The notes beneath the pieces are model-generated. The model made no database searches, was not told the DNA's origin, and saw nothing but the letters and a program-made list of their open reading frames with translations. Source: Candidatus Gottesmanbacteria bacterium RIFCSPHIGHO2_01_FULL_40_15 (lineage in GTDB: Bacteria; Patescibacteriota; Microgenomatia; 2-02-FULL-39-11). From it: a stretch of 64,000 nt of DNA. The stretch spans positions 76,922 to 140,921 of the forward strand of contig MFJF01000005.1 in the NCBI GenBank assembly GCA_001779115.1, in the 5' to 3' direction. Positions 12,726 to 59,124 of this stretch are shown one piece after another (within the stretch, counting starts at the first letter, position 1; every line of letters begins with the position of its first letter). The position numbers were made by a program, and so were the translations under genes.

Positions 12726-14435
12726 ATGATCAACCCGATAAACAGGAATATCTTTGGCAATCCACAATCTATATTGCGGATTATCCCTTTGGGAGGAATA
12801 GGCAATGTGACGAAAAATTTATATGTTTACGAATACAGAAGCCGGCCTGATAACATTTCGGATATCCTAATTGTTGACTGCGGAGTAGGTTTTCCCGATG
12901 AGGCAATGTACGGAATTGATCTGGTTATTCCGGATATAACTTACTTGCGGGATAAAATAAATAAAATCAGGGGAATTATACTTACCCACGGGCATGAAGA
13001 TCATATAGGAGCGCTTCCTTATATTCTGCCGGTACTAAATGTTCCCGTATACGGAACGTTATTAACTGCCAAACTTGCCGAAGTCAAGTTACAGGACTCC
13101 GGTTTGCAAGTAAAGGTTAATGTAATAAACGAAAATATTCCGCTTAAAATAGGGCCGTTTTCGGTTGAATTTATCCATGTTACCCATTCAATTCCGGATG
13201 CTGCCAATCTTTTCATTAAAACTCCTGTTGGTAATTTTTACCACGGCAGTGATTTTAAATTTGACTGGACACCGATTGACGGCAAAAAAACAGAAGTTGA
13301 CAAAATTGCCAGGGCGGGAAAAGAGGGTATAACCTGTTTATTATCCGATTGCGTCAGGGTGGAAACAGAAGGATATACATTGTCTGAAAAAATAATTGAA
13401 GAAACTCTGGATAAGGAAATCAGGAATTGCCCGGGGAAATTTATATTCACTACCCAATCTTCAAATATTTCAAGAATCCAGCAAGCCATTGACGTCTCAA
13501 TCAGAAATAACAGAAAAATAGTCTTTTTAGGCCGGTCAATTGAAAGAAATGTCGGGGTTGCTTACAGATTAAAATATGTAAATTACAGCGAAATGTTTGT
13601 TGTAAGGGACAAAGATATCAGAAAATATAAAGACTCTGAATTAAGCCTCATTGTCACCGGCAGCCAAGCCCAGCCAAATTCGGCGCTTTCCAGAATTGCC
13701 GAAGGAATCCATAAATTCGTGAGAATTAAAGAAGGTGACGTGGTGGTTTTTTCAGCAGATCCGATTCCCGGATATGAAAATGCAGTTCATACTTTGATTG
13801 ATCTTCTGACGGTAAACGGGGCCAGAGTGGCTTATTCGGAGATACAAGACCAGCTTCATGTGTCCGGACACGGTGCGAGAAATGATTTGGCTTTAATGAT
13901 CGGTTTGACTCAGGCGTCAAATCTTTTACCCATAGGCGGAACCTACCGCCAGATGCGGCATTATTCCCAGATGGCCTTTGATATGGGGTATAAACATAAT
14001 CAGGTACTTTTACCGCTTGAAGGAGAAATTATTGAATTTTCAGCTTCCGGACAAGTTAGAATTGCAGAAAAATTAAGCCTGAAGAATGTAATGATCGACG
14101 GTTTGGGTGTCGGGGATATCGGAAATGTTGTTTTACGGGACAGGCAAACAATGGCCAGCGAAGGAATTGTGATTGTGGTTGTACCTTTGGACAAATCATC
14201 AGGAAGAGTAACTGCTGAGCCGGACATAATTTCCCGGGGATTTATCTATATGAAAGAATCTGTAGATTTAATCGATGAAGCAAAAAAAGTGATAATAAAA
14301 TCCTTAAGACTGAAAAAAGGGAGGATTACTGACTGGCAATTTGTCAGAAAACAGGTGGAAAAAAATCTGGAAGGATTCCTGTTTAAGGAAACACACAGAA
14401 GACCTCTTATTCTTGCCGTAGTAGTTCATGTATGA
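12726..14435 (+). CDS. rnj: ribonuclease J (metallo-beta-lactamase/beta-CASP)
   Basis: HGHEDHIGALPYIL motif, a beta-CASP region and a C-terminal domain. The protein is 569 aa. Confidence 0.9.
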   Translation: MINPINRNIFGNPQSILRIIPLGGIGNVTKNLYVYEYRSRPDNISDILIVDCGVGFPDEAMYGIDLVIPDITYLRDKINKIRGIILTHGHEDHIGALPYILPVLNVPVYGTLLTAKLAEVKLQDSGLQVKVNVINENIPLKIGPFSVEFIHVTHSIPDAANLFIKTPVGNFYHGSDFKFDWTPIDGKKTEVDKIARAGKEGITCLLSDCVRVETEGYTLSEKIIEETLDKEIRNCPGKFIFTTQSSNISRIQQAIDVSIRNNRKIVFLGRSIERNVGVAYRLKYVNYSEMFVVRDKDIRKYKDSELSLIVTGSQAQPNSALSRIAEGIHKFVRIKEGDVVVFSADPIPGYENAVHTLIDLLTVNGARVAYSEIQDQLHVSGHGARNDLALMIGLTQASNLLPIGGTYRQMRHYSQMAFDMGYKHNQVLLPLEGEIIEFSASGQVRIAEKLSLKNVMIDGLGVGDIGNVVLRDRQTMASEGIVIVVVPLDKSSGRVTAEPDIISRGFIYMKESVDLIDEAKKVIIKSLRLKKGRITDWQFVRKQVEKNLEGFLFKETHRRPLILAVVVHV

Positions 14436-15295
14436 GGAAAAAAAACCGGCGCAAAAAAATCGGCAAATTTAAACCGGCTCTTTTTATTATTACCTTCCTT
14501 CTCTTTCTGCCGTTTATCTATTCATACAAAATTTACAGCATAAATCCGCAACTTAAGTTTCCGAGAATCAGCAAGGTCAATCTTTCTTCTGATCCTTTGG
14601 TCCTTTCCAATATCCGTTTAAACGTTTTGGGTGCCCAGGCAATTGAACCCTTTGACATTGTCAAATACGTAAATACAGAGCGGAATAAAAAAGGGAGTCA
14701 GCCTCTTATCATTAATGAAAAACTGGTTAAAGCAGCCCGGATGCGGGCAGAAGTTATACTGAAATACCAGAACTTTTCACACCAGGATCCCTTTGAAAAC
14801 ATTGAACTTATAACAGTCATGCCAAAAGTCGGATACAGTTACTCTTATGCCACGGAAAATATCGGTATGGGCGGCTTGTCAGCGGAAGATTTCGTTTCCG
14901 GGTTTATGAACAGTACCAGTCACCGATTAAATCTGTTGGATCCCCAGCTTTATCACACCGGTACGGCAGTGGTAACGGGATCTTATAAACAGTATTTTGT
15001 CAATATCGCGGTACAATTGTTTGCCGTTCCTTCCAGCCGGGAAGAATATTTAGGTTATAACGACATTGACAGGAAAAATTACGGGGCAATACTTACAAGA
15101 CTTGATTATCAATTAAATCCCCTGATTCTGAATTTGCATAAGTTCATCAGTAATAAACAGATTAATGACGAAAAAATTCAAAAAATCAGAAAACAAAAAG
15201 AGATTCTGATGAAACTTCTGGAAATTATGAATGAGGATAAACCGTTTAAGGAAGAACATATTGCGCTTATTTCCGAATACAACGGTTATCTTTGA
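14432..15295 (+). CDS. membrane-anchored CAP/SCP (PR-1-like, YkwD-type) domain protein
   Basis: N-terminal TM helix. CAP motifs are present: ATENIGMGG...MNSTSHRLNLLDPQLYHTGTAV. The start overlaps the rnj stop (ATGA). Confidence 0.6.
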   Translation: MRKKNRRKKIGKFKPALFIITFLLFLPFIYSYKIYSINPQLKFPRISKVNLSSDPLVLSNIRLNVLGAQAIEPFDIVKYVNTERNKKGSQPLIINEKLVKAARMRAEVILKYQNFSHQDPFENIELITVMPKVGYSYSYATENIGMGGLSAEDFVSGFMNSTSHRLNLLDPQLYHTGTAVVTGSYKQYFVNIAVQLFAVPSSREEYLGYNDIDRKNYGAILTRLDYQLNPLILNLHKFISNKQINDEKIQKIRKQKEILMKLLEIMNEDKPFKEEHIALISEYNGYL

Positions 15296-15637
15296 GAAAA
15301 TCCCTGTATATGTTAAGCTGAATATATATTTAGGAAAGGGGGTGAGGTTATTGCAAAACGATTAACCTTATAACCCGGGTGGTGCTGGAGTGCCAGGAGC
15401 TGATCCTAATCCGACTCCTAACCCGCCGGCAGATATGCCACCTGTTATACCTAATCCGACCGTTCCTCCACCTCCGCCTGCAGTTGTGCCGACAGAAACA
15501 CCTGAGCGTGACGGTCAGGAACCGGTCAATCCGAACGGATCAGACGGTCCTGTCGGACAGTGAGAAACCCGATAGATAAAATCCTTCCCTTTGTTTTTTG
15601 ACAAGCGGGATGGATTTTTATATATTTCATTTCTAAA

Positions 15638-16165
15638 ATGAAATTATTCCCGATTCTGACTGTAGTTTTAGGATATACAATCTCATCCTATATTTATTCA
15701 AGTGCAATTTTTTCTAATAATAATTTTACACTTGAAAAATCCCCTTCCGGTTCAGCGTCCGCCACGGTGACACAACCGGTTTTGGAATATACAGTTATAT
15801 CGGAAACACCGGTTCCTACCGCAACCGGGACAGTAACTCCGACTCCGACTCCGACTGTTTATACCGTCGAAAACACACCAACTCAAATTAATGTACTTTT
15901 TGAGAAATACGCTTCAAAGGAATCTGTTGACATTAATATGTTAAGAAAAATTGCCCAATGTGAATCGGGATATAACTCTCAAGCGGTAAACGGGCCGTAT
16001 GCCGGTTTATTTCAATTTTCTTCCCAAACATGGATAACCAGCAGAAGAATGATGAATGCCGATACCAATCCGGATCTAAGATTCAATGCGGAAGAATCAA
16101 TCAAAACGGCTGCATTCAGAATAGCTTCGGGAAATACCGGCTTATGGTACACTTGCTTAAAATAA
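15638..16165 (+). CDS. secreted Rpf-like (transglycosylase-like domain) protein with Pro/Thr linker
   Basis: Signal or TM segment, a TPTPTPT linker, then AQCESGYNSQAVNGPYAGLFQFSSQTWITS...GLWYTC. This matches the transglycosylase-like (Rpf) domain. Confidence 0.6.
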   Translation: MKLFPILTVVLGYTISSYIYSSAIFSNNNFTLEKSPSGSASATVTQPVLEYTVISETPVPTATGTVTPTPTPTVYTVENTPTQINVLFEKYASKESVDINMLRKIAQCESGYNSQAVNGPYAGLFQFSSQTWITSRRMMNADTNPDLRFNAEESIKTAAFRIASGNTGLWYTCLK

Positions 16166-16166
16166 T

Positions 16167-16191
16167 AAACCCACCTTTTTGAGGTGGGTTT
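16167..16191. terminator. bidirectional intrinsic terminator hairpin
   Basis: AAACCCACCT-ttttg-AGGTGGGTTT is a perfect 10-bp stem. It starts 2 nt after the stop of the Rpf-like gene. Confidence 0.5.
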
Positions 16192-16365: not shown

Positions 16366-16791
16366 TTATGAAGTTTTTAACCTCTTTTTATGAAGATAAA
16401 AGGTAACACCTAAGAGAATGATTCCCAAAATTATCAAGACAAAGCCGAGCGGTCCTCCGGCTCTTTGGATAAAGTTAGGTTGAGGTGTCGGAGTCGGGGT
16501 CGGGGTGGCGGTCGGCAAAGGTGTCGGAGTCGGTGAATCGGTCGGTGATGCTGCGGGAGTTGGTGATCGTCTGACAGTCGGGGTTACTGCCCGGGTCGGT
16601 GCGGAAGTATTTGTAGGAGCCCCGGGAGTATTAGAAGCCTGCGCCGGAGCAACTGTCGCGGTTACAGTCGGCTCACCTGAAGTGGGTGATATTGCCGGAG
16701 TATCTGTTTGTCCATTTACGTTTAGCGGACGGAACAATACCAGACTAAGAATAAAAATTACCGCGGGGATCTTTAATAAACTCATTAACAT
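16366..16791 (-). CDS. Pro/Thr-rich secreted protein with C-terminal GG-TM-basic anchor (GlyGly-CTERM-like)
   Basis: N-terminal hydrophobic signal, a long P/T/A low-complexity region, and the C-terminus ...IQRAGGPLGFVLIILGIILLGVTFYLHKKRLKTS. No LPXTG motif is present. Confidence 0.6.
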   Translation of the reverse strand: MLMSLLKIPAVIFILSLVLFRPLNVNGQTDTPAISPTSGEPTVTATVAPAQASNTPGAPTNTSAPTRAVTPTVRRSPTPAASPTDSPTPTPLPTATPTPTPTPQPNFIQRAGGPLGFVLIILGIILLGVTFYLHKKRLKTS

Positions 16792-16843
16792 ACAGACGGA
16801 TTAAGTTGGTATTATAACAAATAAATATCTTTTGGCAACTGGA

Positions 16844-17527
16844 TCAAAAGAAGTCCGATTCATCTTCCTTACGGCTTATCCGGTTGTTTTTTCCTGAAAG
16901 TACAACAAAAAGATAACCGGCGGCAAATCCGCCGATATGCGCCCACCAGGCAACCCCTCCCCTGCCCATCAGACCAATAGTTCCTATTCCTGAAAACAAC
17001 TGGATTATAAACCAGTAACCCAACATGACACCGGCCGGGAGAGATACCTGTTGGAAAAATCCGAAAAAAGAAATGATGAGAGTATCAATTTTATGCTTGG
17101 GATACAGGACAAGATAAGCTCCCAAGACACCGCTTATAGCACCTGACGCTCCGACTGTAGGGATAGCTGAATTGGGTACAAAAAAGAATTGGGTTAAACC
17201 GGCAATAATACCGGTGGCTAAATAAAAAAAAGCATAACCAATATGTCCAAAATGTGCTTCAATATTGTCACCGAATATCCACAAAAACCACAAATTGGAT
17301 ATGACATGAAACCAACCACCGTGAAGAAAAATTGAGTAAATAAAGGGCAGAAGACTTACCGGATCGGTAAAATCAACCAATCGGGGGATCAGAGCAAAGC
17401 GCAATATAAATTCTTCAAAATCGGGAGCGGTAATCTGCAGGAAAAATACATATGAGGTAACAAGAATAACAATGATGTTTATAATGGGAAACTTATGGGA
17501 CGGATTGTGATCACGGATGGGAAACAT
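16844..17527 (-). CDS. rhomboid family intramembrane serine protease
   Basis: HGGWFHVISNLWFLWIFG, GASGAISGV (the GxSG serine) and AHIGGFAAG (the catalytic His). Six predicted TM helices. Confidence 0.85.
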   Translation of the reverse strand: MFPIRDHNPSHKFPIINIIVILVTSYVFFLQITAPDFEEFILRFALIPRLVDFTDPVSLLPFIYSIFLHGGWFHVISNLWFLWIFGDNIEAHFGHIGYAFFYLATGIIAGLTQFFFVPNSAIPTVGASGAISGVLGAYLVLYPKHKIDTLIISFFGFFQQVSLPAGVMLGYWFIIQLFSGIGTIGLMGRGGVAWWAHIGGFAAGYLFVVLSGKNNRISRKEDESDFF

Positions 17528-17530
17528 AAT

Positions 17531-18019
17531 TTACAGTTTGGATAATTCATAAAAAGTATATTTTAAATCTTTATACTGTCCCTGTCTTTTATAAAGAACT
17601 TTTTTGAATTCGTCATAATCCGGGAAAAAAGTATCAGCCTCAAATGATCCTTCGACTACAGTCAAATAGAGTTTATCGGCAAACTTGATTGCCTGGTGGT
17701 ATATTTCCCCCCCGCCGATAAAAAAGATTTCCTGCGTATCCCTGCTTTCACCCATAGAAATAGCTTCCTCTATGGTATGCGCCACAAGAACATTTTCGGC
17801 TTTGAAATCCCGGTCTTTGGTTAAAACTATATTGATTCTTCCCAAAAGCGGTTTGCCGATGGAATCAAATGTTTTTCTGCCCATTATGACAGGATGGCCC
17901 AGGGTTATAGTTTTAAAATGGTGCATATCTTCAGGGATATGCCAGAGCAGTTTATTATCAATGCCTATTTCGCGGTTTTCTCCGATGGCGGCAATAACGG
18001 AGATTTTAAACTGGATCAT
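17531..18019 (-). CDS. folA: dihydrofolate reductase
   Basis: ISVIAAIGENREIG...PVIMGRKTF. The protein is 162 aa. Confidence 0.9.
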   Translation of the reverse strand: MIQFKISVIAAIGENREIGIDNKLLWHIPEDMHHFKTITLGHPVIMGRKTFDSIGKPLLGRINIVLTKDRDFKAENVLVAHTIEEAISMGESRDTQEIFFIGGGEIYHQAIKFADKLYLTVVEGSFEADTFFPDYDEFKKVLYKRQGQYKDLKYTFYELSKL

Positions 18020-18021
18020 AA

Positions 18022-18981
18022 TCAGAAACCTCCCACAACCGTAATCTCGCCTTTAATGGGCGGATACGGATCATAGCCTTCCAGGCTGAAATGTTGGTAA
18101 CGGAAATCATCGATATTTTTTATACTTTTATCAATTTTCATGACAGGCCAGGGTTTCGGTTTTCTTTCCAGCTGTTCCCTGACCTGGTCAAAATGATTCT
18201 CATAAATATGGATATCGCCAAAGGTGTGGACAAAGTCCCCGGCTTTATACCCGGTTACCTGGGCCAGCATCATGGTCAGGAGCGCGTAACTGGCAATATT
18301 AAAAGGTACCCCCAAAAAGGAATCGGCGCTTCTTTGGTAGAGAAGAAGAGACAATTTATCGCCGGTAATATTTATGTGATAAAGGGTATGACAGGGAGCA
18401 ATCACCATGGAATTGGTCCGGCTGCCGCTCATTTCATAGATTGAGCCGGCATTCCAGGCGGAGATGACATAATGTTTTTTCTGGGGAAATTTTTTAATTT
18501 TTTCAATCGCCCATCCCAGCTGGTCGATTTCCTTTCCGTCTCCTGTCGGCCAGCGCCTCCACTGGACACCGTAAACCGGCCCGAGCTCGCCCCAGTCTTC
18601 CAGGAATTTTTTATCGGAGGTCATTTTTTGCATAAATTCCTCATACGGCAAAGGCTTTTCTTTTTTTGCATCCTTAACCCAGGTGTATTTTCTGTAAGCC
18701 CACTCGTCCCAGATATGGACATTGTTCTCAACCAGATATTTGATGTTGGAACTGCCTGATAAGAACCAAAGGAGTTCATGAATAATGCCTCTGACAAAGA
18801 CTTTTTTGGTGGTCAGGAGCGGAAATCCTTTGGATAAATCGAACCTTATTTGGCGGCCGAAGACGCTTTTTAATCTGACACCGGTTGAATGGCTGATCTT
18901 CATAGCGCCATTTTCCATGATGTCTTTTAAGAGGTTAAGATATTGATATTCCGGGTGGACAGTATTTTCCATATAAAACAA
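18022..18981 (-). CDS. thyA: thymidylate synthase (ThyA type)
   Basis: Conserved ThyA blocks: RGIIHELLWFLSGS, VIAPCHTLYH, DFVHTFGDIHIY. The gene sits 3 nt upstream of folA. Confidence 0.9.
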   Translation of the reverse strand: MFYMENTVHPEYQYLNLLKDIMENGAMKISHSTGVRLKSVFGRQIRFDLSKGFPLLTTKKVFVRGIIHELLWFLSGSSNIKYLVENNVHIWDEWAYRKYTWVKDAKKEKPLPYEEFMQKMTSDKKFLEDWGELGPVYGVQWRRWPTGDGKEIDQLGWAIEKIKKFPQKKHYVISAWNAGSIYEMSGSRTNSMVIAPCHTLYHINITGDKLSLLLYQRSADSFLGVPFNIASYALLTMMLAQVTGYKAGDFVHTFGDIHIYENHFDQVREQLERKPKPWPVMKIDKSIKNIDDFRYQHFSLEGYDPYPPIKGEITVVGGF

Positions 18982-23095: not shown

Positions 23096-23749
23096 ATGAA
23101 GACAGTCGGAGAAATCTTAAGACGAGCCAGAGACGAAAAGGGGCTGACTTTGGATCATATCGAGGAAAAAATAAAAATCAGGAAAAAATTTCTTCAGGCG
23201 CTTGAAGAGAACGCCTGGAACAAACTTCCTTCACTTCCCTATATTAAAGGTTTTTTAAGAAACTACAGTTCATTTCTTAACCTTAATGCCGATGAAATGC
23301 TGGCAGTTTTCAGGAGGCAATATCTTTTTGAAGAGAAGGATGAGTTGATTCCCGAGAGCATTTCCAATCCTGTCAATAAACCCATCATCAGGCTGTCACC
23401 CCAAAGAATCTTCCTTTTGGTAACGGTCATTTTCCTCTTAATTTTTTTCATTAACCTGGCCCGCCAGTACCGGGCCATTTCCAACCCGCCCATGCTTTCC
23501 GTGAAACAGCCCAATGAGGGTGAAATATTAACATCTCAGGATCTGGAGGTTCGCGGAAAAACCGATCCCGACGCGGTTATTGAGATAAACAACAAAAAAA
23601 TTACAATTAATGACAAGGGTGAATTTTCTGCCACATTCCAGCTTCAGCCTGGAATCAATACAATCATAATCGAATCAGTCAGTAAACACGGGAAAAAAAG
23701 AACAGTCACCAGAACCGTCTCGGTTGAAAATCAAGGCTCGCAATTTTAA
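23096..23749 (+). CDS. RodZ-like protein (HTH_25 domain, TM helix, DUF4115-like C-terminal domain)
   Basis: GEILRRARDEKGLTLDHIEEKIKIRKKFLQALEE...LPYIKGFLRNYSSFLNL is typical of the RodZ N-terminus. A single TM helix and a beta-rich C-terminal domain follow. Confidence 0.65.
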   Translation: MKTVGEILRRARDEKGLTLDHIEEKIKIRKKFLQALEENAWNKLPSLPYIKGFLRNYSSFLNLNADEMLAVFRRQYLFEEKDELIPESISNPVNKPIIRLSPQRIFLLVTVIFLLIFFINLARQYRAISNPPMLSVKQPNEGEILTSQDLEVRGKTDPDAVIEINNKKITINDKGEFSATFQLQPGINTIIIESVSKHGKKRTVTRTVSVENQGSQF

Positions 23750-25194
23750 TGAAGCTGAAGCTTTTTTCCCTCATTCTTTTATATTTTCTGAGCCGGATTC
23801 CCTTTATCCGCAGTTACCCCGTTTATTATGATTCATTTGAATATGAAAGGATTGCCGATAAGATTAACCTTTCTAATTTCAGGCAAACAGCCCTCTTAAG
23901 CCACCAGCCGGTCCATACTTTTTACCTGGCAACAGCCGCTTTTTTCAAATCGTTTTTTCCCTATCTTAATTCCGGACAGGTGCTTTCCTTAATTTCATTT
24001 CTGTCCGGACTATTTACCGTTATCATTTTTTATTTGGCAATAAAAGATATTGACGGTGAAAACAGGGGGTTTTGGGCGGGACTTTTTCTTTTATCGTTTC
24101 CCTATTTTTTGGCAGTTAACAGTAATATTTTATACGAAGGAGAGCTTTTGATGTTTCTGGCTCTGGCCTTATTATTGGGGATTAAGCCCGGGAAAAAAAA
24201 CAATATGTACTTGACAGCGCTTTCCGGTGTCAGCTACGGGTTATCGGTTCTTATTTTTATCGGCAGTCTGTTTTTTCTGCCAATAATTCTTATTGTTAAT
24301 ATTGCCAAAAAGAAGAAACCGGTATTTAATCTTTTTATCTTTCTCCTGGCTTTTTCTTTAACCGCTATTCTGTCAGATTTAATATTGTTTTCCTCAATTA
24401 TTAATCTGGCTGATAAATATCTTTCCCATGCCTCGGATTTTACTTCAGCCCGGGGCGGGATTTTAATTTTTACGGCCAGGATTTTAAGAAATATTTTCCT
24501 TCAAACAAGCCTTAATCTTTCCGCTATCGGAGCGGCTATTTTCTTTGCGGCACTTATTTTTTTTCTTTATAAAAAACGAGTTTACCGGACATATTTTTTA
24601 GTTTTGGGAATACCGCTTATGATTTTGATGCAGTATTGGCATGCCGGTCTTTACGGAAGACTGGCTGTTATTATACTTTTTCCGGCCGCTTATGTTTTAT
24701 CCCAAATCGGCAAAAATTCACTTTCCAAATTATTAATTATTCTTCTAATCCTGACAACAACCGGAAAATACGCCAAAGCTTTTTTAAGCCGCCCGCCCTC
24801 ATACCACTATCTTAAACTTATTAATAATAATCCCGTTTTAAATGGGTCCGCCGTTGTTACATCAGATTACAACCGTTTTATTTATGAAAGATACGGGTCG
24901 CCTGTTTTTATCATCAGGGATACACCCGGAATATATGACCAACTGGATGTTTTTATCAGCAGGCAGCTTCAAAACAACAGAATTGTAGCGGTTGATTCGC
25001 AGGCAGTTTTTTTCCCAAATAGGCAATTTGACGGGGATTTTTACCATCCCTTAACATTTAAAAAAAGGGCAAATGAAAAAATTCAAACAATATTGAAAAA
25101 ATATCCGACAGTCAGTACAGTCAAAGACTCCGGAAATGAAGAGATTTACTTCCTGATTTTAAATCCCGGTGAATCTTTGGCAATTTATCATTGA
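23749..25194 (+). CDS. GT-C family glycosyltransferase (ArnT/PMT-like)
   Basis: More than 10 TM helices. The first-loop motif YYDSFEYERIADKI resembles the DExRYAxIAR signature of ArnT/PMT. Confidence 0.55.
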   Translation: MKLKLFSLILLYFLSRIPFIRSYPVYYDSFEYERIADKINLSNFRQTALLSHQPVHTFYLATAAFFKSFFPYLNSGQVLSLISFLSGLFTVIIFYLAIKDIDGENRGFWAGLFLLSFPYFLAVNSNILYEGELLMFLALALLLGIKPGKKNNMYLTALSGVSYGLSVLIFIGSLFFLPIILIVNIAKKKKPVFNLFIFLLAFSLTAILSDLILFSSIINLADKYLSHASDFTSARGGILIFTARILRNIFLQTSLNLSAIGAAIFFAALIFFLYKKRVYRTYFLVLGIPLMILMQYWHAGLYGRLAVIILFPAAYVLSQIGKNSLSKLLIILLILTTTGKYAKAFLSRPPSYHYLKLINNNPVLNGSAVVTSDYNRFIYERYGSPVFIIRDTPGIYDQLDVFISRQLQNNRIVAVDSQAVFFPNRQFDGDFYHPLTFKKRANEKIQTILKKYPTVSTVKDSGNEEIYFLILNPGESLAIYH

Positions 25195-35453: not shown

Positions 35454-37625
35454 ATGTCATTACTTACCCAGATTTTGCCGAAAAAGGAAGGCACAAATTA
35501 TTTCATTCTTTTAGGTCTTGAGGAGAATATTGTCAGGGCGGCGGTTGGAGAAATTTCTGACAGCAAAGTCAGAATCCTGGGAACCGGTAAAAGCGAATTT
35601 GCCGACGAAAAGAATGAAACGGAGGCGGTTGATATGGCCATATCCATGGCCGAAAAATCCCTGCCTGAAGAAATACTTCCGGAAAATGTCATATTTGCCC
35701 TGCCCCAGTTTTATCTTGAAGGAACAAACGTCAAAGAAGAATATTTGAAAAGACTGAAAAAAATTTCCAAAGAGCTGAATTTGAAAGCGGAAGGCTTTGT
35801 CGATTATGCTTCTGCTATCAGCTATTACCTGGATAATGAAGAGGGCGCGCCGCCAACAGTATTGCTTTTTGACCTGACCAAAAACCACCTGACGATAACC
35901 CTTATCAGAATCGGAAAAATTTCCCAGCATGTTATCGTTGACAGAACAGATTCCATAGTATCTGATTTTTCCGGGGCTTTGCCCGAATTTAAGGCGGAAA
36001 TTCTGCCTTCAAGAATTATTCTTTATGACGGTGCGGAAAAAATTGACGAGATAAAAGAAGAACTTCTCAGATTCCCCTGGCACAAGCATTCCATATTCTT
36101 ACATACCCCCAAAATCGAAATTCTGTCAAATGATAAAATTCTGAAATCCATAATTGAGGCGGCATCGACGACATTTCTGCCTAAACCTGACGCATTAATC
36201 CAAATGAAACAGTCTTATAACCCGGAAGACACCGGTGAAAAAGAAACCGTAACTGAAAATCCGCCGAAAATTGGAGAAACACAAAAAATTGTAGGCGATG
36301 AGAATGACAAAGCGCCAGATACGGATAATGAAAATAAACAGAATTTCGGATTTGTCAGTGAAACACTGGCGGAAAAAGCGGAGAAATTTAAAAGAGAAAC
36401 ATCACCATATTCTGAAAGGTCCGGCAGGAAAAACGGACATGAGGCGCCAATTGATATAGGCGCAATTAGCGGTCAAATCATAACCAAATTTAATAATATC
36501 AAAGGAGTTTTTTACCTGGTACCATTGGTTTTATTAATTTTTGTTGCTTATCTTTTTATATTAAATTATCCCAGGGCGTCCGTTTCCTTAATAACTTACC
36601 CCAGACCGTATGATCAGACATTGGATATCGTATTTTCACAGGAAGCCGGGGCGGGAGACGATTTGCCTCTTATATTAACCAGAACTGTTAAAGGCGAGGC
36701 AGGCGGAGAAAAATCAGCCAAAACTACCGGAAAAAACCAGATCGGAGAAAAAGCCAAAGGTGAAATTTCAATTTACAATAAAACTTTATCCTCAAAACAA
36801 TTGCCTAAAGGAACAATTTTACAAACCGGACCGTTAAAATTTACTTTGGATGGTGATGTAAAAATTGCCTCAGCAACGGAAACCGGAGAAGGAATAAACT
36901 TCGGAAAAGCATCGGCTAAAGTAATTGCGGCAGTTATCGGACCGGAAGGAAATCTGGCGGCTAACAGTAATTTCACGGTGGTTGATTTTTCCGACTCTAC
37001 ACTGACTGCCAAAAACAGCCAGCCATTCTCAGGCGGAACAAGCCGGGAGATTGCCAGCATTTCAAGGGAAGACCGGGATAATCTGGAAGAAAAGTTAATG
37101 ACTGAGCTTGTCAATAAAGCCAAACAGAGTCTGGTAAAAGAATTATCATCAGGAGAAAGACTCCTCGAAACACCAATATCAACTGAGATTTCAGCCAAGA
37201 AATTCAGCGGTGAGGCGGGAAGTGAAGCTGAAAAACTTAATCTGTCCATGACATTAACAGTTGAAGCCCAGGTTTTTAAGCAAAACGAATTGGAAAAACT
37301 GGCAGAGGAAAACAAATTATCGGCAATAGCCGGTTATACTTTGGACAAGGATAAAGTGAGCTTCAGCGTTTTAGAGAGTGTGATTGAAAAAAACGGATCA
37401 ATCAAGGCAAAGGTTAAACTTGTTTCCTATTTTATTCCCGATCTTGACATGGGGAAAATCAAAAAAGACCTCAAAGGAAAAACCTATGACGGAGCCGTTT
37501 CATATCTGGAGAAAATCGAAAACATTGCCGGAGTTAAAATATCGGTAATAAGGAAACTGCCTCTTTTTAATAAACGCCTCCCGTATTTGCCGGATAATAT
37601 CAGTGTATCACTGGTATCCAGATAA
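35454..37625 (+). CDS. bitopic membrane protein: N-terminal FtsA/PilM-like (degenerate actin-fold) cytoplasmic region, TM helix, large extracytoplasmic domain
   Basis: The N-terminus YFILLGLEENIVRAAVGEISDSKVRILGTGKS resembles the first phosphate-binding strand of FtsA/PilM but lacks DxGT. A TM helix lies at about residue 345. The 3' end overlaps the sortase ORF. Confidence 0.45.
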   Translation: MSLLTQILPKKEGTNYFILLGLEENIVRAAVGEISDSKVRILGTGKSEFADEKNETEAVDMAISMAEKSLPEEILPENVIFALPQFYLEGTNVKEEYLKRLKKISKELNLKAEGFVDYASAISYYLDNEEGAPPTVLLFDLTKNHLTITLIRIGKISQHVIVDRTDSIVSDFSGALPEFKAEILPSRIILYDGAEKIDEIKEELLRFPWHKHSIFLHTPKIEILSNDKILKSIIEAASTTFLPKPDALIQMKQSYNPEDTGEKETVTENPPKIGETQKIVGDENDKAPDTDNENKQNFGFVSETLAEKAEKFKRETSPYSERSGRKNGHEAPIDIGAISGQIITKFNNIKGVFYLVPLVLLIFVAYLFILNYPRASVSLITYPRPYDQTLDIVFSQEAGAGDDLPLILTRTVKGEAGGEKSAKTTGKNQIGEKAKGEISIYNKTLSSKQLPKGTILQTGPLKFTLDGDVKIASATETGEGINFGKASAKVIAAVIGPEGNLAANSNFTVVDFSDSTLTAKNSQPFSGGTSREIASISREDRDNLEEKLMTELVNKAKQSLVKELSSGERLLETPISTEISAKKFSGEAGSEAEKLNLSMTLTVEAQVFKQNELEKLAEENKLSAIAGYTLDKDKVSFSVLESVIEKNGSIKAKVKLVSYFIPDLDMGKIKKDLKGKTYDGAVSYLEKIENIAGVKISVIRKLPLFNKRLPYLPDNISVSLVSR

Positions 37626-37632
37626 GGGAAAA

Positions 37633-38337
37633 ATGGCAATTTATTCCTACACCAAAACAAAAGCGCCGATATCAAAAAAACTTCTATCGGTAATATCAGT
37701 CGTTCTCATACTGACAGGACTGACTCTTTTAACTGCCGTCATCTACCCGATCGTTGCTTTTGAAATTTATTATTCTTCAAAATATGCCAATTTAATCAAG
37801 CCGATTCCTGATGACAATAAATCATTAACCGGAAATTTATCGGAGGTGCTGGGTACGGCCTTTACCGATTACACAAAAGCAAGCATCTGGTTTCCCAAGG
37901 CCAGCCGGGTTAATCTTGTCAGGAATTCTTCCCAATATCTGTTGTCGATTCCCAAATTAAAAGTAAATAAGGCAAATGTTATTGTCGGATCAGATGACCT
38001 GTCAAAATCGCTGATACACTTTACCGGACCGCTACCGGGAAGCCGCGGAAATCCGGTCATATTCGGGCATTCAACCATACTTCTTTTTTACAACCCTTCA
38101 GACTATAAAGCGATTTTTTCCAAACTTCCTGATCTTGAACTGGGAGATGAGATATTTATTGAACTGGATAATGTCACCTATACTTTCAGAGTTTATGATA
38201 TGTTTATAACATCACCTTCGGATCTGTCGGTGCTGGAGCAAAATACCGACGATGAAGAAATTACTTTGATAACTTGTGTTCCTCCGGGAACATATCTTAA
38301 GCGGTTTATAGTTAAAGCGAGACTGGAAAAAATATAA
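37633..38337 (+). CDS. sortase family transpeptidase
   Basis: N-terminal TM helix, catalytic His (IFGHS), TLITC (TLxTC Cys) and a conserved Arg (VKARL). The start is placed at the ATG with an AAGGGA RBS; the track start at 37603 is rejected. Confidence 0.8.
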   Translation: MAIYSYTKTKAPISKKLLSVISVVLILTGLTLLTAVIYPIVAFEIYYSSKYANLIKPIPDDNKSLTGNLSEVLGTAFTDYTKASIWFPKASRVNLVRNSSQYLLSIPKLKVNKANVIVGSDDLSKSLIHFTGPLPGSRGNPVIFGHSTILLFYNPSDYKAIFSKLPDLELGDEIFIELDNVTYTFRVYDMFITSPSDLSVLEQNTDDEEITLITCVPPGTYLKRFIVKARLEKI

Positions 38338-51146: not shown

Positions 51147-51276
51147 CCGGTTTTTCCATCTTTCCACTTCAGGAGTTGAATTCTCATGACAGTTTGGGAA
51201 CTGACTAGAACTGTTGTTTTTTGTGTATAATGAGAACAGTCCTTTATTGAGGTTTTTTTCATTATTGGTTTTTAGC

Positions 51277-51834
51277 ATGCCTGCCTCAAAACAGAAAACA
51301 AGCATAAATCTGGTTATTAAGCCGGAAGAACAGTTAAATCTGTCATCGCAATTCTTAAATTGGGCATTAACATACGGCAGGTATATTATTATCATTATTC
51401 AAATTGTAGTTTTATCCGTTTTTTTCATGAGATTTAAATTTGACCGTGATAGAACCGATCTTCGGGAAACCGTTTCACAAAAAAAGGCGTTAATTGAATC
51501 AATCACGGAAATGGAAAATGAAATAAGAAAAGTGCAAAAAAAATTGGCCGATATAAAACTCATTACAACAGAACAGGATATATATCTGCGACTGATCAAT
51601 TTCCTGGAAGATAATACACCGGTCGAAACTACTTTTTCCTTATTATCTTTTTCCAGTGATAAAGTCAGTTTTGTAGCGGTGGCGCAGGATTTAAAAACTT
51701 TCAATTATCTGCTAAAAAGAATCCAGGATGAGAAACTTTTTACTGATATCGCTCTTGAGGATTTAAAAAGACGGGCAGACGGAAAGGTTGAATTCCGGGT
51801 AATGACTAAATTAGTTACCAAATCATATGAATAA
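51277..51834 (+). CDS. type IV pilus assembly PilN-like protein
   Basis: N-terminal INLLP-like motif (SINLVIKPEE), a TM helix and a periplasmic coiled coil. The track's upstream extension from 51214 is rejected. Confidence 0.5.
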   Translation: MPASKQKTSINLVIKPEEQLNLSSQFLNWALTYGRYIIIIIQIVVLSVFFMRFKFDRDRTDLRETVSQKKALIESITEMENEIRKVQKKLADIKLITTEQDIYLRLINFLEDNTPVETTFSLLSFSSDKVSFVAVAQDLKTFNYLLKRIQDEKLFTDIALEDLKRRADGKVEFRVMTKLVTKSYE

Positions 51835-52453
51835 AGGTCCGCAATCGCTGTCGGCTATCAAAAACAGTCTGATATTAAAAACCCGCCGCAGGCTAAAACC
51901 GGTAATACAGAACCGTAGAACCGCCTCCTACTTTACTTTAACGCTGACTCTTTTTTCCCTTTCGTTTTTCGGGCTGTTTGCCATCAGACCGACGCTGATT
52001 ACGGCTATCACATTAATTAAAGAAGTAAATGATCTTAAAAAATTAAGCCTGGATTATGAAAATAAAATCAGTAATATAATTCTTGCCCAATCGGAATATG
52101 AAAGAATAAGAGAGTCGCTTCTTAATATTGAGGCGGCCCTGCCGGGAAAATCAGATTTTACAGGTTTTTCCAAAGCCATGGAAAAGTTAGCTTTTAATAA
52201 CGGAGTGGTAATTAACCAACTGCAAATTGATTCGGCACCAATATCAATCCCCCAAACGAACGGATTATTATCCCGCTTTAATTTTATTCTTATCGGTGTG
52301 GGCGCTTACGAAAATGTTAATTCTTATTTAGCCGACATTTATAATTATAAAAGAATTGTTACAATAAATTCGATGGATTTTACTCCTGAAGGAGGAACGG
52401 TAAGCGGTATACTGCGTATTTCCATGAAAGGCAAAGCATATTATGAACCGTAA
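51827..52453 (+). CDS. type IV pilus assembly PilO-like protein
   Basis: TM helix, coiled coil and a C-terminal alpha/beta domain. The gene is translationally coupled to the PilN-like gene. Confidence 0.45.
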   Translation: MNKGPQSLSAIKNSLILKTRRRLKPVIQNRRTASYFTLTLTLFSLSFFGLFAIRPTLITAITLIKEVNDLKKLSLDYENKISNIILAQSEYERIRESLLNIEAALPGKSDFTGFSKAMEKLAFNNGVVINQLQIDSAPISIPQTNGLLSRFNFILIGVGAYENVNSYLADIYNYKRIVTINSMDFTPEGGTVSGILRISMKGKAYYEP

Positions 52454-52634
52454 AGAATTGTATATTCTGGCGCTGATAACATTTATGACTGTTGTTGTCT
52501 GGATTATTTTTGGGATATCCGGCGCCCGAAAGATATCCAAAGTTGAAGATCAGACTTTAAAAACTATTGTTCCTTTAACTCCCACATTTGACAGTGACAT
52601 TATCAACCAACTCAACCGGCGGGAGGCAGAATAA
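52443..52634 (+). CDS. small single-TM protein (hypothetical)
   Basis: 63 aa with overlapping start and stop with its neighbours (operon-like). Confidence 0.35.
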   Translation: MNRKELYILALITFMTVVVWIIFGISGARKISKVEDQTLKTIVPLTPTFDSDIINQLNRREAE

Positions 52635-54064
52635 TGTACCGGAAAGTTAAAAAAATACCGACAATTCTGGCGCTTTTACTAATCATGTTCGGTTTGGGAG
52701 CGGGACTTTATCTGGACGGCACTTACCAACAATTTTTTACAAGCGCTTCACCACCGGTTGCTCCATCAGATATTCATTTAACCAATATTTCCGATAACTC
52801 AATCACAGTTTCCTATATTACGGAAAAACCGGAAACCGGAGCGGTCATATTAACTCTAAATGGAAAACAGACTACCCATCTTGACGACATTGATAACGAC
52901 TGGATAACAAAATCCCGGCTGACCCATATGTTTACTCTCAAAAATCTAATGCCAGATACTTTTTACAACATAAAAATCGTCAGCGGAAAATCATCATGCA
53001 GAAATACAGCTTGTCCCGAATTTACTCAAAAAACCGGCGTCAAACTGGATTCTCCTTTGGAATTACCGCCGATTACCGGCAGGTTAGTTGATAATAAAAA
53101 CGATCCGACCGAAGAGGGCCTTATTTATCTTCTTATAGGAAAGGCCAGTCCGCTGTCGGCCAGAACTGACGGAAAAGGAATATTTGCCATTCCGCTAAAT
53201 AATTTAAGAAGCCAGGATTTTCTGAAAAGACCGGATTTAGATGATAATTCACCTATTCAAATTACCTTTAAGAAAAGTCCATCGAGTTATGCTTCGGTAA
53301 TAAGCAGACTGGGTCTTGTTAAAAACGATCCTTCGCTTGAAGACATTGAACTTGGAAAAACTTATAATTTTCTAAACGCTGAAGAAAGTGGAGCTGAAAG
53401 CGGAAGACCGGCAGTATTGGGAAACAGATCATCGCGTTTAAATCCAACTGGCCCGACACCGACCATAATAAAAAAAGGCGTAGAACTTTTTTTCCCGGAA
53501 AAAAACCTGGATACGACAATTGATAATAATCCGAAATTCCGCGGAGCCGGAATTCCGGGAGACACCCTTAAAATAACAGTCAAATCCAAAATTCAGACGG
53601 CAAACATTATCGTCGGCAGTGACGGAACCTGGGAATTCCGGCCTAAAGAACCACTGGAACCGGGAAGTCATGAAATTACCGTTGAAGGAAAAGACATCAA
53701 CGGAAAAAAAGTCTCTGTAACCCGCAAATTCGTGGTTTTTAAAAGCGGAGAACAGATTCTGGGAGAATCAACTCCTTCGGGAGATTTGACCCCGACAGAA
53801 ACACCGGATATTACTCCGACGGAAACACCGGATATTTCCATAACAATCAGTCCCACCCCGCAATTATCTCCGACATATACTCCTACTCCAACGCCTTCGG
53901 AAACACCGACGCCCTCCCAAACACCGACACCGACAGATGAAGGAGAAGTTGCAGTGACGGATATCCCGCCGCGTGCAGGGACCACAGGCATGACCAATGC
54001 AATCCTTATAAGCAGTTTGGCAATATTGTTTTACGGAATACGAATGCTTTTGGTGAATTTATAA
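52634..54064 (+). CDS. surface protein: N-terminal TM helix, FN3-like and bacterial Ig-like domains, Pro/Thr linker, C-terminal RAG-TM anchor
   Basis: The FN3-like block reads SDIHLTNISDNSITVSYI...FYNIKIVSG. The Ig-like block reads GDTLKITVKS...GSHEITVEGKD. TPTETPDI tandem repeats follow, and the protein ends ...DIPPRAGTTGMTNAILISSLAILFYGIRMLLVNL. Confidence 0.6.
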   Translation: MYRKVKKIPTILALLLIMFGLGAGLYLDGTYQQFFTSASPPVAPSDIHLTNISDNSITVSYITEKPETGAVILTLNGKQTTHLDDIDNDWITKSRLTHMFTLKNLMPDTFYNIKIVSGKSSCRNTACPEFTQKTGVKLDSPLELPPITGRLVDNKNDPTEEGLIYLLIGKASPLSARTDGKGIFAIPLNNLRSQDFLKRPDLDDNSPIQITFKKSPSSYASVISRLGLVKNDPSLEDIELGKTYNFLNAEESGAESGRPAVLGNRSSRLNPTGPTPTIIKKGVELFFPEKNLDTTIDNNPKFRGAGIPGDTLKITVKSKIQTANIIVGSDGTWEFRPKEPLEPGSHEITVEGKDINGKKVSVTRKFVVFKSGEQILGESTPSGDLTPTETPDITPTETPDISITISPTPQLSPTYTPTPTPSETPTPSQTPTPTDEGEVAVTDIPPRAGTTGMTNAILISSLAILFYGIRMLLVNL

Positions 54065-55168
54065 ATCAGGTTGTTTTATTATCGAGCAACTGTCATTTTT
54101 GAGATTGCAGGAAATAAATTCATGAATCTCTTCAAAAGTTCCTGAACGGGGTGCCAAAACCCATATTCCATCATACTGCCATAAAGGCGGATTGACCAGA
54201 AGTCCAGGAATATCCTTTGAAAGATCTCCCGTATCAAGCACTAAATGTCTGGCACTTATGTCCTGATTGAAATAAAGAAATTTACCCAAAGACATCATTT
54301 CGGCAAACGACATATCCGTCGTTAACGAATCATAAACAGTAGAGTAGATTTTTTTAAAAAGTCCAATATTTTTCAGACTGACAGTACTTTTTATTTTTTT
54401 GGCAATTGCGGTAATGACAAGCTGCTGACGCTGTGAACGGGAAAAATCATTACCCTGACCATTATCCAGAGAACCCCGGCTGCGGACGAATTTTAATGCC
54501 AAGGTGCCATCCATATTTTGGACACCTTTTTCAAACCGGACAGTTTCATACCGGCAGGTAAATTCCGGATCACTGCCCCCGCAGTTGTCATTTTCTTTAC
54601 CGGCTATGGGAAAAAGCTTATCTTCAAAAGGAGCGTTGACATTAATTTCAATTCCGCCTATGAGATCAATGACCTTCCGGAAAGCCTCAAAATCAAGAAT
54701 AAATCCATAAGAAACCGGCTTACCGACAACTTCAGATACGGAAGATTTGGCCAAAATAAGACCGCCTCCTTTTTTCTTTTTTTCACCGTAATAAAAGGAA
54801 GAGTTAATTTTTGTTTTAAGAGACGGTAACCAGACATCCCGGGGAATTGAAACCAAAAGAACTTCTTTTTTTGTAAAATCAATACTGCCAAAAATAATTG
54901 AATCCGTCAGCGTAGATCCGGCATGATTACCTCCGGAAATTCCCAAAATGACAAAATTTGTCCGGTTATCCGTAATTTTTATCCGTGGGGTTTTTTCCAA
55001 AAGAAGAGAAACCAGAGTAAAAGGGCTTATTTTTGTTTCGGAAATAAAATTTACCGCCGGACGCATAAGACCGATGACAAATAACAGAAGAGACAAAAAA
55101 ATTACTGTTAAAACAGCAAGTAAAAGAGGCAAGCGGTATTTGAGGAATTTTCTTTTAACCGGCGGCAT
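54059..55168 (-). CDS. LytR-CpsA-Psr (LCP) family cell-wall polymer transferase
   Basis: N-terminal TM helix. LCP core with FVILGISGG...TDSIIFGSIDFTKKEVLLVSIPRD. Confidence 0.85.
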   Translation of the reverse strand: MPPVKRKFLKYRLPLLLAVLTVIFLSLLLFVIGLMRPAVNFISETKISPFTLVSLLLEKTPRIKITDNRTNFVILGISGGNHAGSTLTDSIIFGSIDFTKKEVLLVSIPRDVWLPSLKTKINSSFYYGEKKKKGGGLILAKSSVSEVVGKPVSYGFILDFEAFRKVIDLIGGIEINVNAPFEDKLFPIAGKENDNCGGSDPEFTCRYETVRFEKGVQNMDGTLALKFVRSRGSLDNGQGNDFSRSQRQQLVITAIAKKIKSTVSLKNIGLFKKIYSTVYDSLTTDMSFAEMMSLGKFLYFNQDISARHLVLDTGDLSKDIPGLLVNPPLWQYDGIWVLAPRSGTFEEIHEFISCNLKNDSCSIIKQPDL

Positions 55169-58107: not shown

Positions 58108-59121
58108 ATGATCGCCACAGTTTTTAAAGAAAAAAAAGAGGGATTTAACAGACTGGCGAGTCACCCACTCCAATCCTGGGAGTGGGGTGAATTCCGGCTG
58201 AAAACCGGAATTGAGGTTTTGAGGCTTGGTTTATTTTCCAAAAATAAATTGGTAGAAACCGCCCAAATCAGCCTCCATCAGATTCCCTTTACAGGGTACC
58301 GCATCGGTTATTTTCCCAAAGGGAATTTTCCTTCAAAAGAAATGCTTGACGAATTTATGAAAATCGGGGCTTCGGAAAATCTGATATTTATTAAAATCGA
58401 ACCGAATATTGAGAAAAAAAATCTGGTTATTTCAGATTTGAAAAAAGATTTTCCGGTCAAGGAATCACCCCATCCCCTTTTTACCCGGTATACTTTCCGG
58501 CTTAACATGAACCGAAGTGAGGACGAACTTTTGTCCGTTATGCATCATAAAACCAGATACAATATAAAACTGGCCGAAAAAAAGGGTGTTTATGTTGTTG
58601 AGGATAACAGTGATGAGGCTTTTAATAAATATCTTGCACTTTTGGATGAGACAACAGTGCGGCAAAAATTTTACGCGCATACCCCAAAATATCACCGATT
58701 GATGTGGGAAACATTAAAACCGGCAAAAATTGCCAGACTGCTTCTTGCCAAATATAAAGACCAGGGAGGTGAAAAAACACTGGTTGCCTGGGTGTTATTT
58801 CTTTTTAATAACGTCATGTATTATCCTTACGGAGCTTCATCTGCGGAATTTCGCAATCTTATGCCTTCCAATCTGATAATGTGGAAAGCAATAACCTACG
58901 CTAAAAAACATAAAGCCGAAACTTTTGACATGTGGGGAGCCTTGGGACCTAATCCCGATCCCAATGATCCCTGGTACGGTTTTCATAAATTCAAGGAAGG
59001 ATTCGGGGCAGATCTTACTGAACTGGCCGGCAGTTATGATTTGGTGATTAATAAGAAGGCATACTTATCTTATAATTTATTGCATAACTTCAGGGAATTG
59101 TATTTGAAAATGAAAAGATAA
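58108..59121 (+). CDS. FemAB-family peptidoglycan aminoacyl-transferase (GNAT fold)
   Basis: HPLQSWEWGEFRL at the N-terminus and GFHKFKEGFGAD at the C-terminus are FemABX hallmarks. Confidence 0.7.
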   Translation: MIATVFKEKKEGFNRLASHPLQSWEWGEFRLKTGIEVLRLGLFSKNKLVETAQISLHQIPFTGYRIGYFPKGNFPSKEMLDEFMKIGASENLIFIKIEPNIEKKNLVISDLKKDFPVKESPHPLFTRYTFRLNMNRSEDELLSVMHHKTRYNIKLAEKKGVYVVEDNSDEAFNKYLALLDETTVRQKFYAHTPKYHRLMWETLKPAKIARLLLAKYKDQGGEKTLVAWVLFLFNNVMYYPYGASSAEFRNLMPSNLIMWKAITYAKKHKAETFDMWGALGPNPDPNDPWYGFHKFKEGFGADLTELAGSYDLVINKKAYLSYNLLHNFRELYLKMKR

Positions 59122-59124
59122 GGA

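Follow-up and report, generated by a model that had tools for sequence, protein, structure and literature searches.

Does the location of a rhomboid protease gene directly beside a gene for a small surface protein mean that the protease acts on this protein? The question is raised by a locus in a 64-kb stretch of DNA (64,000 nucleotides, hereafter the window) from a Candidatus Gottesmanbacteria bacterium (Microgenomates; candidate phyla radiation, CPR) of Rifle groundwater. The smaller gene, here called X (open reading frame (ORF) 16366-16791, minus strand), encodes a protein with a proline- and threonine-rich (P/T-rich) ectodomain and a single C-terminal transmembrane (TM) helix, and a rhomboid gene is located immediately upstream. 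Both ORFs are present on the minus strand at the positions collected in Table 1, and the intergenic gap is 52 nucleotides, not the 53 nucleotides reported previously. A first-pass annotation of this DNA described a six-helix rhomboid with GxSG and AHxGG motifs on the same strand directly upstream of X, and a signal peptide, P/T/A-rich ectodomain and GG-TM-basic tail for X itself, all of which is borne out by our analysis. However, it also labelled the two genes a rhombosortase/GlyGly-CTERM-like pair, and this label over-reaches.

We tentatively favour the explanation that the two genes are neighbours and do not constitute a dedicated enzyme-substrate system, although our confidence in it is somewhat below even. 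X would then be a separately transcribed, mucin-like protein that is specific to Gottesmanbacteria and is processed by a sortase-type route. In its original form, the proposed pairing would have meant that sorting of the rhombosortase type also occurs in CPR bacteria, which the evidence does not support. In what follows, loci from relatives are designated by L-numbers.

An ordinary rhomboid protease

The rhomboid matches the Pfam model Rhomboid (PF01694) with 104.8 bits (gathering score 22.6), and this is the sole model that passes. Its sequence includes HVISN at residues 74-78 (H74xxxN78), GASG at 126-129 with the catalytic Ser128, and AHIGG at 196-200 with His197. By this motif check the catalytic dyad is intact, and the hydropathy profile exhibits approximately six hydrophobic segments. 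As an active-site-complete member of PF01694 the enzyme resembles generic rhomboids (AarA-TatA, GlpG, YqgP). Unlike these, it has no solved or characterised close relative, in that a PDB sequence search returned no match at E<=0.001.

A comparison with the rhombosortase model TIGR03902, which had been proposed as a check, yields 19.5 bits (E = 7.6e-4) against a cutoff of 84 and thus runs counter to the rhombosortase label. The GlpG model (TIGR04239) gives 18.1 bits against a cutoff of 250.

There are 6830 proteins that match the rhomboid family at E<=1e-30, and homologs with 38-54% identity are found in Acidobacteriota, Chloroflexota, Planctomycetota, Bacillota and other phyla. We classify the protein as a typical representative of a minimal six-helix family with a very wide distribution, and not as a rhombosortase. 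Because the rhomboid is ubiquitous while X has only about six orthologs, we conclude from these distributions that the conserved role of the family cannot be the processing of X.

At two low-GC loci a rhomboid homolog is adjoined by a protein of approximately 70 amino acids that has two helices and the motif GKLPGDI[YF][IV]. These loci are L001 (5071-5283), which is labelled uncultured gammaproteobacterium, and L004 (855-1070), which is labelled Candidatus Levyibacteriota, a CPR phylum. The two-helix protein is located upstream of the rhomboid in one locus and downstream in the other.

Pairing of the rhomboid with X in relatives

There are 88 non-redundant loci with rhomboid homologs for which 1.5 kb on each side was inspected, and an X-like neighbour is found only at L091/L092 and L096. 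Same-strand adjacency therefore recurs in three species-level lineages, namely the window, L091/L092 and L096. A further possible pairing is located at L093, where the rhomboid is 63% identical and a downstream ORF with a TM segment and a P/T-rich stretch is interrupted by the end of the contig. In contrast, an X-like neighbour is lacking at five loci whose rhomboids are 57-68% identical to that of the window (L094, L097, L098, L099 and L100), and at 80 loci from GTDB with homologs of 38-54% identity. The rhomboids of the five closer loci are instead found next to thyA, a PIN toxin-antitoxin pair, SelR, an HTH/Gp49 pair and a metallopeptidase. At L097 (3688-4381) a small ORF and then a PIN-domain toxin gene, a probable toxin-antitoxin pair, take up the position downstream of the rhomboid, with RadC and a type I restriction-modification methylase beyond them. 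The presence of the toxin gene, RadC and the methylase suggests that this position is an insertion hotspot.

The pairing is also broken at loci that retain X. In L103 (P0194; Logan contig from SRR22388270) the gene order is thyA-folA-X-SLT-RNaseJ, wherein X is intact and the rhomboid ORF is missing. Comparison of L103 1150-1225 with window positions 17500-17545 and 16775-16870 reveals the string ATGTTTCCC right after the folA stop codon; this string agrees with the beginning of the rhomboid gene and continues straight into the promoter region of X. The first three rhomboid codons seem to survive in this string, which suggests a clean deletion. The folA gene of L103 is 77.8% identical to that of the window, whereas the value for L091 is 68.5%. 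Thus, L103 falls within the paired clade, and the rhomboid would have been lost at this locus while X was kept. Two other orthologs of X follow a Zincin_1 gene rather than a rhomboid (L101, P0198) or have unrelated neighbours (L102, P0254).

Relatives that keep the pair also share the entire block FtsK-ABC-ABC2-thyA-folA-rhomboid-X-RNaseJ-Lon, and because the whole block is syntenic, adjacency says little at that phylogenetic depth. For this reason, and because X has a promoter of its own, operon coupling was rejected as evidence for the pairing. A stop/start overlap of the rhomboid and X in L096 is likewise only apparent, since alignment of the X start with the other orthologs gives MTKK... 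approximately 20 nucleotides downstream. We interpret the pairing as local synteny in a narrow Gottesmanbacteria subclade, and at least one close relative (L103) does without it. The proposed conservation of the pair therefore holds for three lineages and fails at the five closer loci, at the 80 distant ones and at L101-L103. A generic rhomboid and a pairing that is conserved only locally both count against the label given in the first-pass annotation.

A true protease-substrate pair is, in our judgement, unlikely. It would mean that the rhomboid cuts X atop its TM helix, either after A111 (with Ile at P4 and Ala at P1) or after G113, and thereby sheds the P/T-rich ectodomain or passes it on. 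Such a pair would give a monoderm CPR bacterium a functional counterpart to the rhombosortase/GlyGly-CTERM systems that have a single target. The intact catalytic dyad and the same-strand adjacency in the window, L091/L092, L096 and possibly L093 are consistent with this idea, as is the precedent that genomes with a single rhombosortase target place the target gene beside the enzyme gene (Haft & Varghese 2011, PMC3237569). However, the enzyme family is ubiquitous while X is limited to one small lineage, the pairing is lost in both directions in near relatives, including the rhomboid-less locus with an intact X, and X has an independent conserved promoter. In addition, among approximately 60 genes in the window, only 2 encode proteins with a single hydrophobic tail at the C-terminus (X and a 476-amino-acid protein discussed below). 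By our own estimate a rhomboid would adjoin one of the two by chance in about 1 of 15 cases, so adjacency alone is suggestive and not statistically compelling.

X is a lineage-specific gene with its own promoter

There are only about six true orthologs of X among 1.84 billion representative proteins. Aligned orthologs that share the signal peptide, the P/T-rich stretch and the conserved tail are found in at least six other lineages, represented by L091/L092 (Gottesmanbacteria GW2011_GWA2_43_14), L096, P0193, P0194, P0198 and P0254, the last four of which were recovered by searching this protein set. They share 40-54% identity in a protein that is otherwise of low complexity and fast-evolving, and local phmmer comparisons with X give 121 bits for L096 and 77 bits for L091. 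A metagenome scan with the tail alignment confirmed only two loci, L095 (the same organism) and L096, and a tail-only profile search of a 5.8-billion-protein collection gave 2 word-sharing candidates and no match. Across 11 near-identical contigs, variation in X is too low for a dN/dS-type test. A weak match to TrbC/VirB2 pilin (15.1 bits, cutoff 27.9) was rejected as an identity for X.

Cleavage of the signal peptide would be expected after VNG and before QTD, and the aligned ends in orthologs are VNA/QE, SYA/QT and ASA/QS. The Pfam Mucin model gives 23.5 bits for X, which is below threshold, and the ectodomain is probably mucin-like and either extended or wall-spanning.

Most public gene calls, including the GenBank records OGG08070.1, OGG18196.1, OGG22866.1, OGG32519.1 and OGG23480.1, place a G/V-rich ORF of 99 amino acids on the opposite strand, and X itself is called only in some JGI, Logan and ENA gene sets. 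If the antisense ORF were the real gene, X would not be a gene and its tail would be a chance reading of low-complexity DNA. Despite the agreement among these records, we consider this very improbable. The 141-amino-acid frame, with its signal peptide, conserved tail and stop codon, is kept in at least six divergent orthologs, and a conserved promoter precedes its start. The antisense ORF is otherwise featureless, and no antisense ORF of at least 60 amino acids covers X in L096. It probably represents a shadow ORF on the strand opposite the P/T-rich coding region, and the GenBank calls appear to reflect a systematic choice of the wrong strand where the coding DNA is P/T-rich. On this comparative evidence we regard X as a real gene and as a member of a small surface-protein family that is specific to Gottesmanbacteria and has been overlooked in GenBank.

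A predicted sigma-70-like promoter forms part of the spacer between the rhomboid and X. Its TGnTATAAT element is invariant in the window, L103, L096 and L091, where it lies 14-19 nucleotides upstream of the X start and the flanking DNA is poorly conserved. A terminator-like hairpin is located downstream of X. The conserved promoter and this hairpin indicate that X is most likely transcribed on its own. The distance from the -10 element to the start codon also implies a very short leader, and there is no obvious Shine-Dalgarno sequence.

The C-terminal tail of X

Residues 107-141 of X are FIQRAGGPLGFVLIILGIILLGVTFYLHKKRLKTS. There are seven tails in the X family: FIQRAGGPLGF (window), FIQKAGGPLGF (L096), FIQKAGGPLGL (P0193), IFQKTGGPLGL (P0194), FLARSGGGAGF (L091), FVERSGGFLGY (P0198) and FFSSVGGKPLA (P0254), each of which is followed by a helix and a K/R tail. 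The consensus is F-[ILVF]-x-[RKS]-[ASTV]-G-G with GG invariant in all seven, and the stretch formed by the pentapeptide and GG before the helix is the most strongly conserved part of X.

The first-pass annotation read this arrangement as that of rhomboid substrates and GlyGly-CTERM signals. A GlyGly-CTERM-like layout is indeed present, with the GG motif, a 21-residue helix and a basic cluster (KKR, KKK or RKQK), but LPXTG signals and tails like those of rhomboid substrates have the same tripartite layout. The model for GlyGly-CTERM (TIGR03501), a 22-residue domain hidden Markov model, did not match any of the seven tails even at a limit of E<=10. A synthetic control tail of GlyGly-CTERM type scored 27.0 bits against the cutoff of 15.5, and thus the model is usable on short inputs. 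With the rhombosortase model also far from its cutoff, the assignment as a rhombosortase/GlyGly-CTERM pair is not sustained. Moreover, the same tail is not found on unrelated proteins within the 64 kb, where the sole other tail is of a sortase type (xPx[TSAP]G).

The known rhombosortase (RrtA/RssP)/GlyGly-CTERM system is Gram-negative and mainly proteobacterial, and it is linked to type II secretion and outer-membrane display (PMC3237569, PMC6219818). X resembles its targets in having a tripartite C-terminus with two glycines directly before the TM segment and a basic cluster, and in adjoining a rhomboid-family gene, as targets do in single-target proteobacterial genomes. The differences comprise both model scores, a CPR host with a Gram-positive-type envelope, a pairing that is not kept in near relatives, and the lack of any many-to-one target set among the proteins found.

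The tail nevertheless supplies the most specific arguments concerning cleavage by the rhomboid. Rhomboid recognition favours a large hydrophobic residue at P4, a small residue (A/C/S/G) at P1 and a hydrophobic residue at P2' (Strisovsky et al. 2009, PMC2941825). For a cut before GG, P4 is I/I/I/F/L/V/F (hydrophobic in 7 of 7) and P1 is A/A/A/T/S/S/V (small in 5 of 7), and thus two of the three key positions agree. An [AST]-G-G sequence lies directly before the TM segment with GG in every tail, and VesB is cut by rhombosortase right after ...SSGG (Gadwal et al. 2018, PMC6219818). The helix begins with a Gly/Pro-rich segment (GGPLG) that destabilises helices, and X shares such an outer end of a type-I helix with generic rhomboid substrates. 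However, P2' is Gly in all seven tails (hydrophobic in none), and this residue is unacceptable at that position in TatA and suboptimal for GlpG. The Thr or Val at P1 in two tails also violates the motif. For a cut after GG, P1' is Pro in 4 of 7 tails, which is not tolerated in TatA (PMC2941825).

Several features agree better with a sortase signal. The LPXTG_anchor model TIGR01167 (cutoff 15.9) gives 14.2 bits for the window tail and 19.4, 16.7, 16.5, 15.3 and 14.8 bits for five orthologs, with one more giving no match. Thus, three of the seven tails pass and three others are less than 2 bits below the cutoff. The best non-orthologous phmmer matches to X are P/T-rich linkers followed by LPXTG tails, such as LPETGD, LPGTGG and LPEAGG. 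Like proteins of the LPXTG system and its variants (LPXAG, LAXTG), X has a P/T-rich segment, a pentapeptide that ends in Gly, a hydrophobic stretch and a K/R tail. We therefore propose, as a tentative reading that falls somewhat short of an even chance, that the tail may be a sortase processing signal, specifically an LPXTG-like variant.

X also differs from the LPXTG system. The pentapeptides before the helix and basic tail are IQRAG, IQKAG, FQKTG, LARSG, VERSG and FSSVG, none of which is a canonical LPXTG. Position 2 lacks Pro or a consistent Ala, position 4 varies among A, S, T and V, an invariant Gly follows the motif, and the sortase encoded in the window fits no class A-F model.

Another possibility, which is less probable than a sortase signal and which we rate as rather unlikely, is that X is an unprocessed bitopic protein whose helix anchors a P/T-rich and possibly O-glycosylated brush to the cytoplasmic membrane. 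The sequence F-x-x-[RK]-[AST]-G-G-x-x-G would then be a juxtamembrane or helix-packing feature and no cleavage site. Indeed, the lack of Pro sets the motif apart from canonical LPXTG and the Gly at P2' sets it apart from the rhomboid motif, and a 21-residue helix with a positive-inside basic tail suffices for any type-I anchor. A PMT_2-family membrane glycosyltransferase (protein O-mannosyltransferase-like) is encoded at 23749-25194 on the plus strand, 7 kb from X. P/T-rich secreted proteins are classic substrates of PMT-type enzymes in Actinobacteria, and X may therefore be glycosylated. A simple anchor is less easily reconciled with the concentration of conservation in the pentapeptide-GG stretch, which is typical of a recognition site, or with a layout that matches curated sorting-signal models at or near threshold.

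The models for the archaeal C-terminal sorting tails Loki-CTERM (NF033507) and Heimdall-CTERM (NF045529) also score over the helix and basic tail of the X family, with 17.2-17.7 bits (cutoff 19.9) and 20.1 bits (cutoff 24), respectively. None of these scores reaches its cutoff, the signature motifs are different, and no archaeosortase-type gene was seen in the window.

A sortase and a second sorting signal in the window

A candidate enzyme for the processing of X is encoded in the same window. This sortase has a TLITC catalytic motif and matches PF04203 (83.8 bits) and TIGR01076 (50.4 bits, cutoff 39.35), and no class-specific (A-F) model passes. Other genes in the window that are expected of a Gram-positive-type envelope comprise two FemAB genes, LCP, MurJ and YceG. 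The two FemAB-family genes are in tandem at 58108-59994 on the plus strand and imply that the peptidoglycan contains an interpeptide bridge, the structure that usually serves as acceptor in sortase transpeptidation. The sortase gene overlaps by 23 nucleotides the 3' end of a gene for a 723-amino-acid protein (combined span 35454-38337, plus strand), which has a weak Baseplate_J-like match (21.5 bits) and is without a C-terminal sorting signal.

The first-pass annotation also cited a second surface protein, of 476 amino acids, as having a similar tail. This protein does end with PPRAGTTG and a hydrophobic tail (PPRAGTTGMTNAILISSLAILFYGIRMLLVNL; PPRAG at 53966-53980), but its signal is of the LPXTG type. 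There are 59 orthologs with 24-52% identity, and 53 of these have xPx[T/S/A/P]G just before the hydrophobic tail; since the pattern itself required Pro, all 53 matching tails have Pro. The pentapeptides at the position of PPRAG include PPRSG (8), PPPTG, PPATG, IPVSG, VPVTG, LPPTG, IPKTG, IPETG and VPTTG/IPTTG/MPTTG. We assign this tail as a degenerate LPXTG-type sortase signal that is different from the GlyGly type. It thus provides no evidence for a GlyGly-type signal, points to the rival enzyme, and counts against a dedicated pairing of X with the rhomboid. The clearer sortase substrate of this lineage uses PPR[AS]G, and its [RK]-[AS]-G is shared with the X motif.

The 476-amino-acid protein matches Big_13 (45.2 bits) and falls just under the 25-bit cutoff for fn3 (23.2 bits). 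Its gene is the last of a cluster that encodes PilN, PilO and a small TM protein (51214-54064, plus strand) and converges on an LCP gene (54059-55168, minus strand). The protein may be a wall-anchored component of a CPR type IV pilus apparatus.

Possible fates of X

If the tail of X is a sortase signal, the following route can be proposed. X would be exported by Sec and its signal peptide cut after VNG. The P/T-rich chain of approximately 80 residues would then span a wall of the Gram-positive type, while the tripartite signal (F-[ILVF]-x-[RK]-[AST]-G-G, the TM helix and the K/R tail) would hold the protein. As the most likely fate, the sortase would cut between A111 and G112 and transfer X to peptidoglycan. 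Perhaps, as a fallback, the tail simply remains as a membrane anchor.

Several points weigh against this explanation. Same-strand adjacency of the rhomboid and X with short spacers recurs in three lineages. Position 2 of the motif is never Pro in the seven X orthologs (Q, Q, Q, Q, A, E, S), and the second Gly is invariant in all seven, a residue that a sortase signal does not need and that would be expected for GlyGly- or rhomboid-type substrates. Furthermore, the TIGR01167 matches span only model positions 8-34, which correspond to the helix and basic part and not to the LPXTG positions. Finally, we know of no experiment on a sortase or rhomboid from CPR bacteria.

The invariant, Pro-less ...[AST]-G-G motif of X could mark a rhomboid substrate, and because GG is invariant and Pro never occupies position 2, we continue to allow a link between the rhomboid and X a small share of the probability. 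One form of this link, which we consider improbable and less likely still than a protease-substrate pair in general, is that a generic rhomboid was recruited within a Gottesmanbacteria subclade as the dedicated processor of X and recognises F-[ILVF]-x-[RK]-[AST]-G-G at the outer end of the helix. In this case, the recruited rhomboid would be an independently evolved monoderm analogue of rhombosortase/GlyGly-CTERM, and X would be the first natural substrate to be proposed for a rhomboid of CPR bacteria. To our knowledge, there is no known case that pairs a rhomboid with a P/T-rich mini-protein, and a literature search found no paper that describes sortase motifs or rhomboid substrates in CPR/Patescibacteria.

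If the preferred sortase-type processing of X is correct, sortase signals in Microgenomates would be degenerate in at least two ways, with xPx[T/S/A/P]G in one family and the Pro-less [ILVF]-x-[RK]-[AST]-G-G in another. Such degenerate signals matter for predicting the surface proteome of uncultured bacteria of the episymbiont type. The locus also offers an inexpensive and well-defined test case for rhomboid versus sortase specificity, wherein a 141-amino-acid protein and two candidate enzymes are encoded within 64 kb.

Features of the locus and neighbouring genes

Table 1. Positions of the rhomboid, X and associated features in the window (aa, amino acids).
Feature	Position	Strand	Basis or remark
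Rhomboid intramembrane serine protease, 227 aa, minimal six-helix form	16844-17527	-	PF01694, motifs, hydropathy
X, 141-aa type-I surface protein with signal peptide, P/T-rich low-complexity ectodomain and C-terminal tripartite tail	16366-16791	-	ORF and orthologs
X, predicted Sec signal peptide, aa 1-27 (MLMSLLKIPAVIFILSLVLFRPLNVNG, then QTD)	16711-16791	-	Translation
X, ectodomain, aa 28-106 (79 residues), 75% P/T/S/A, low complexity	16474-16710	-	Composition
X, juxtamembrane motif FIQRAGG, aa 107-113	16453-16473	-	Ortholog alignment
X, C-terminal TM helix, aa 114-134 (PLGFVLIILGIILLGVTFYLH), then basic KKRLKTS, aa 135-141	16369-16452	-	Hydropathy, sequence
Predicted sigma-70-like promoter for X, within the rhomboid-X spacer (TTGCCA, 16 nucleotides, TG-n-TATAAT; 11/12 matches, extended -10)	16811-16838	-	Sequence scan
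Terminator-like hairpin, 10-bp stem and T run, between the convergent X and SLT genes	16167-16191	-	Downstream of X
Antisense G/V-rich ORF, 99 aa	16505-16804	+	Annotated in place of X (GenBank OGG08070.1 and others)
folA	17531-18019	-	Directly upstream of rhomboid; same syntenic block as rhomboid and X
thyA	18022-18981	-	Upstream of folA; same syntenic block as rhomboid and X
Sortase, 244 aa, TLITC catalytic motif	37603-38337	+	PF04203, 83.8 bits; candidate processing enzyme for both tails
fn3/Big_13 surface protein, 476 aa	52634-54064	+	Downstream of PilN and PilO; C-terminal sortase-type signal

The genes that are convergent with X encode a secreted SLT-type lytic transglycosylase (15638-16165, plus strand) and a CAP-domain protein (14432-15295, plus strand). 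The transglycosylase bears a P/T-rich linker of its own (TPVPTATGTVTPTPTPT). Both genes are missing from the corresponding position in L091/L092, and the SLT gene is kept in L096 and L103. Between the two is a Pro-rich ORF of 57 amino acids (15390-15563, plus strand; MPGADPNPTPNPPADMPPVIPNPTVPPPPPAVV...), which some public gene callers call with a variable length (57, 62 or 100 amino acids) and which we regard as putative coding sequence.

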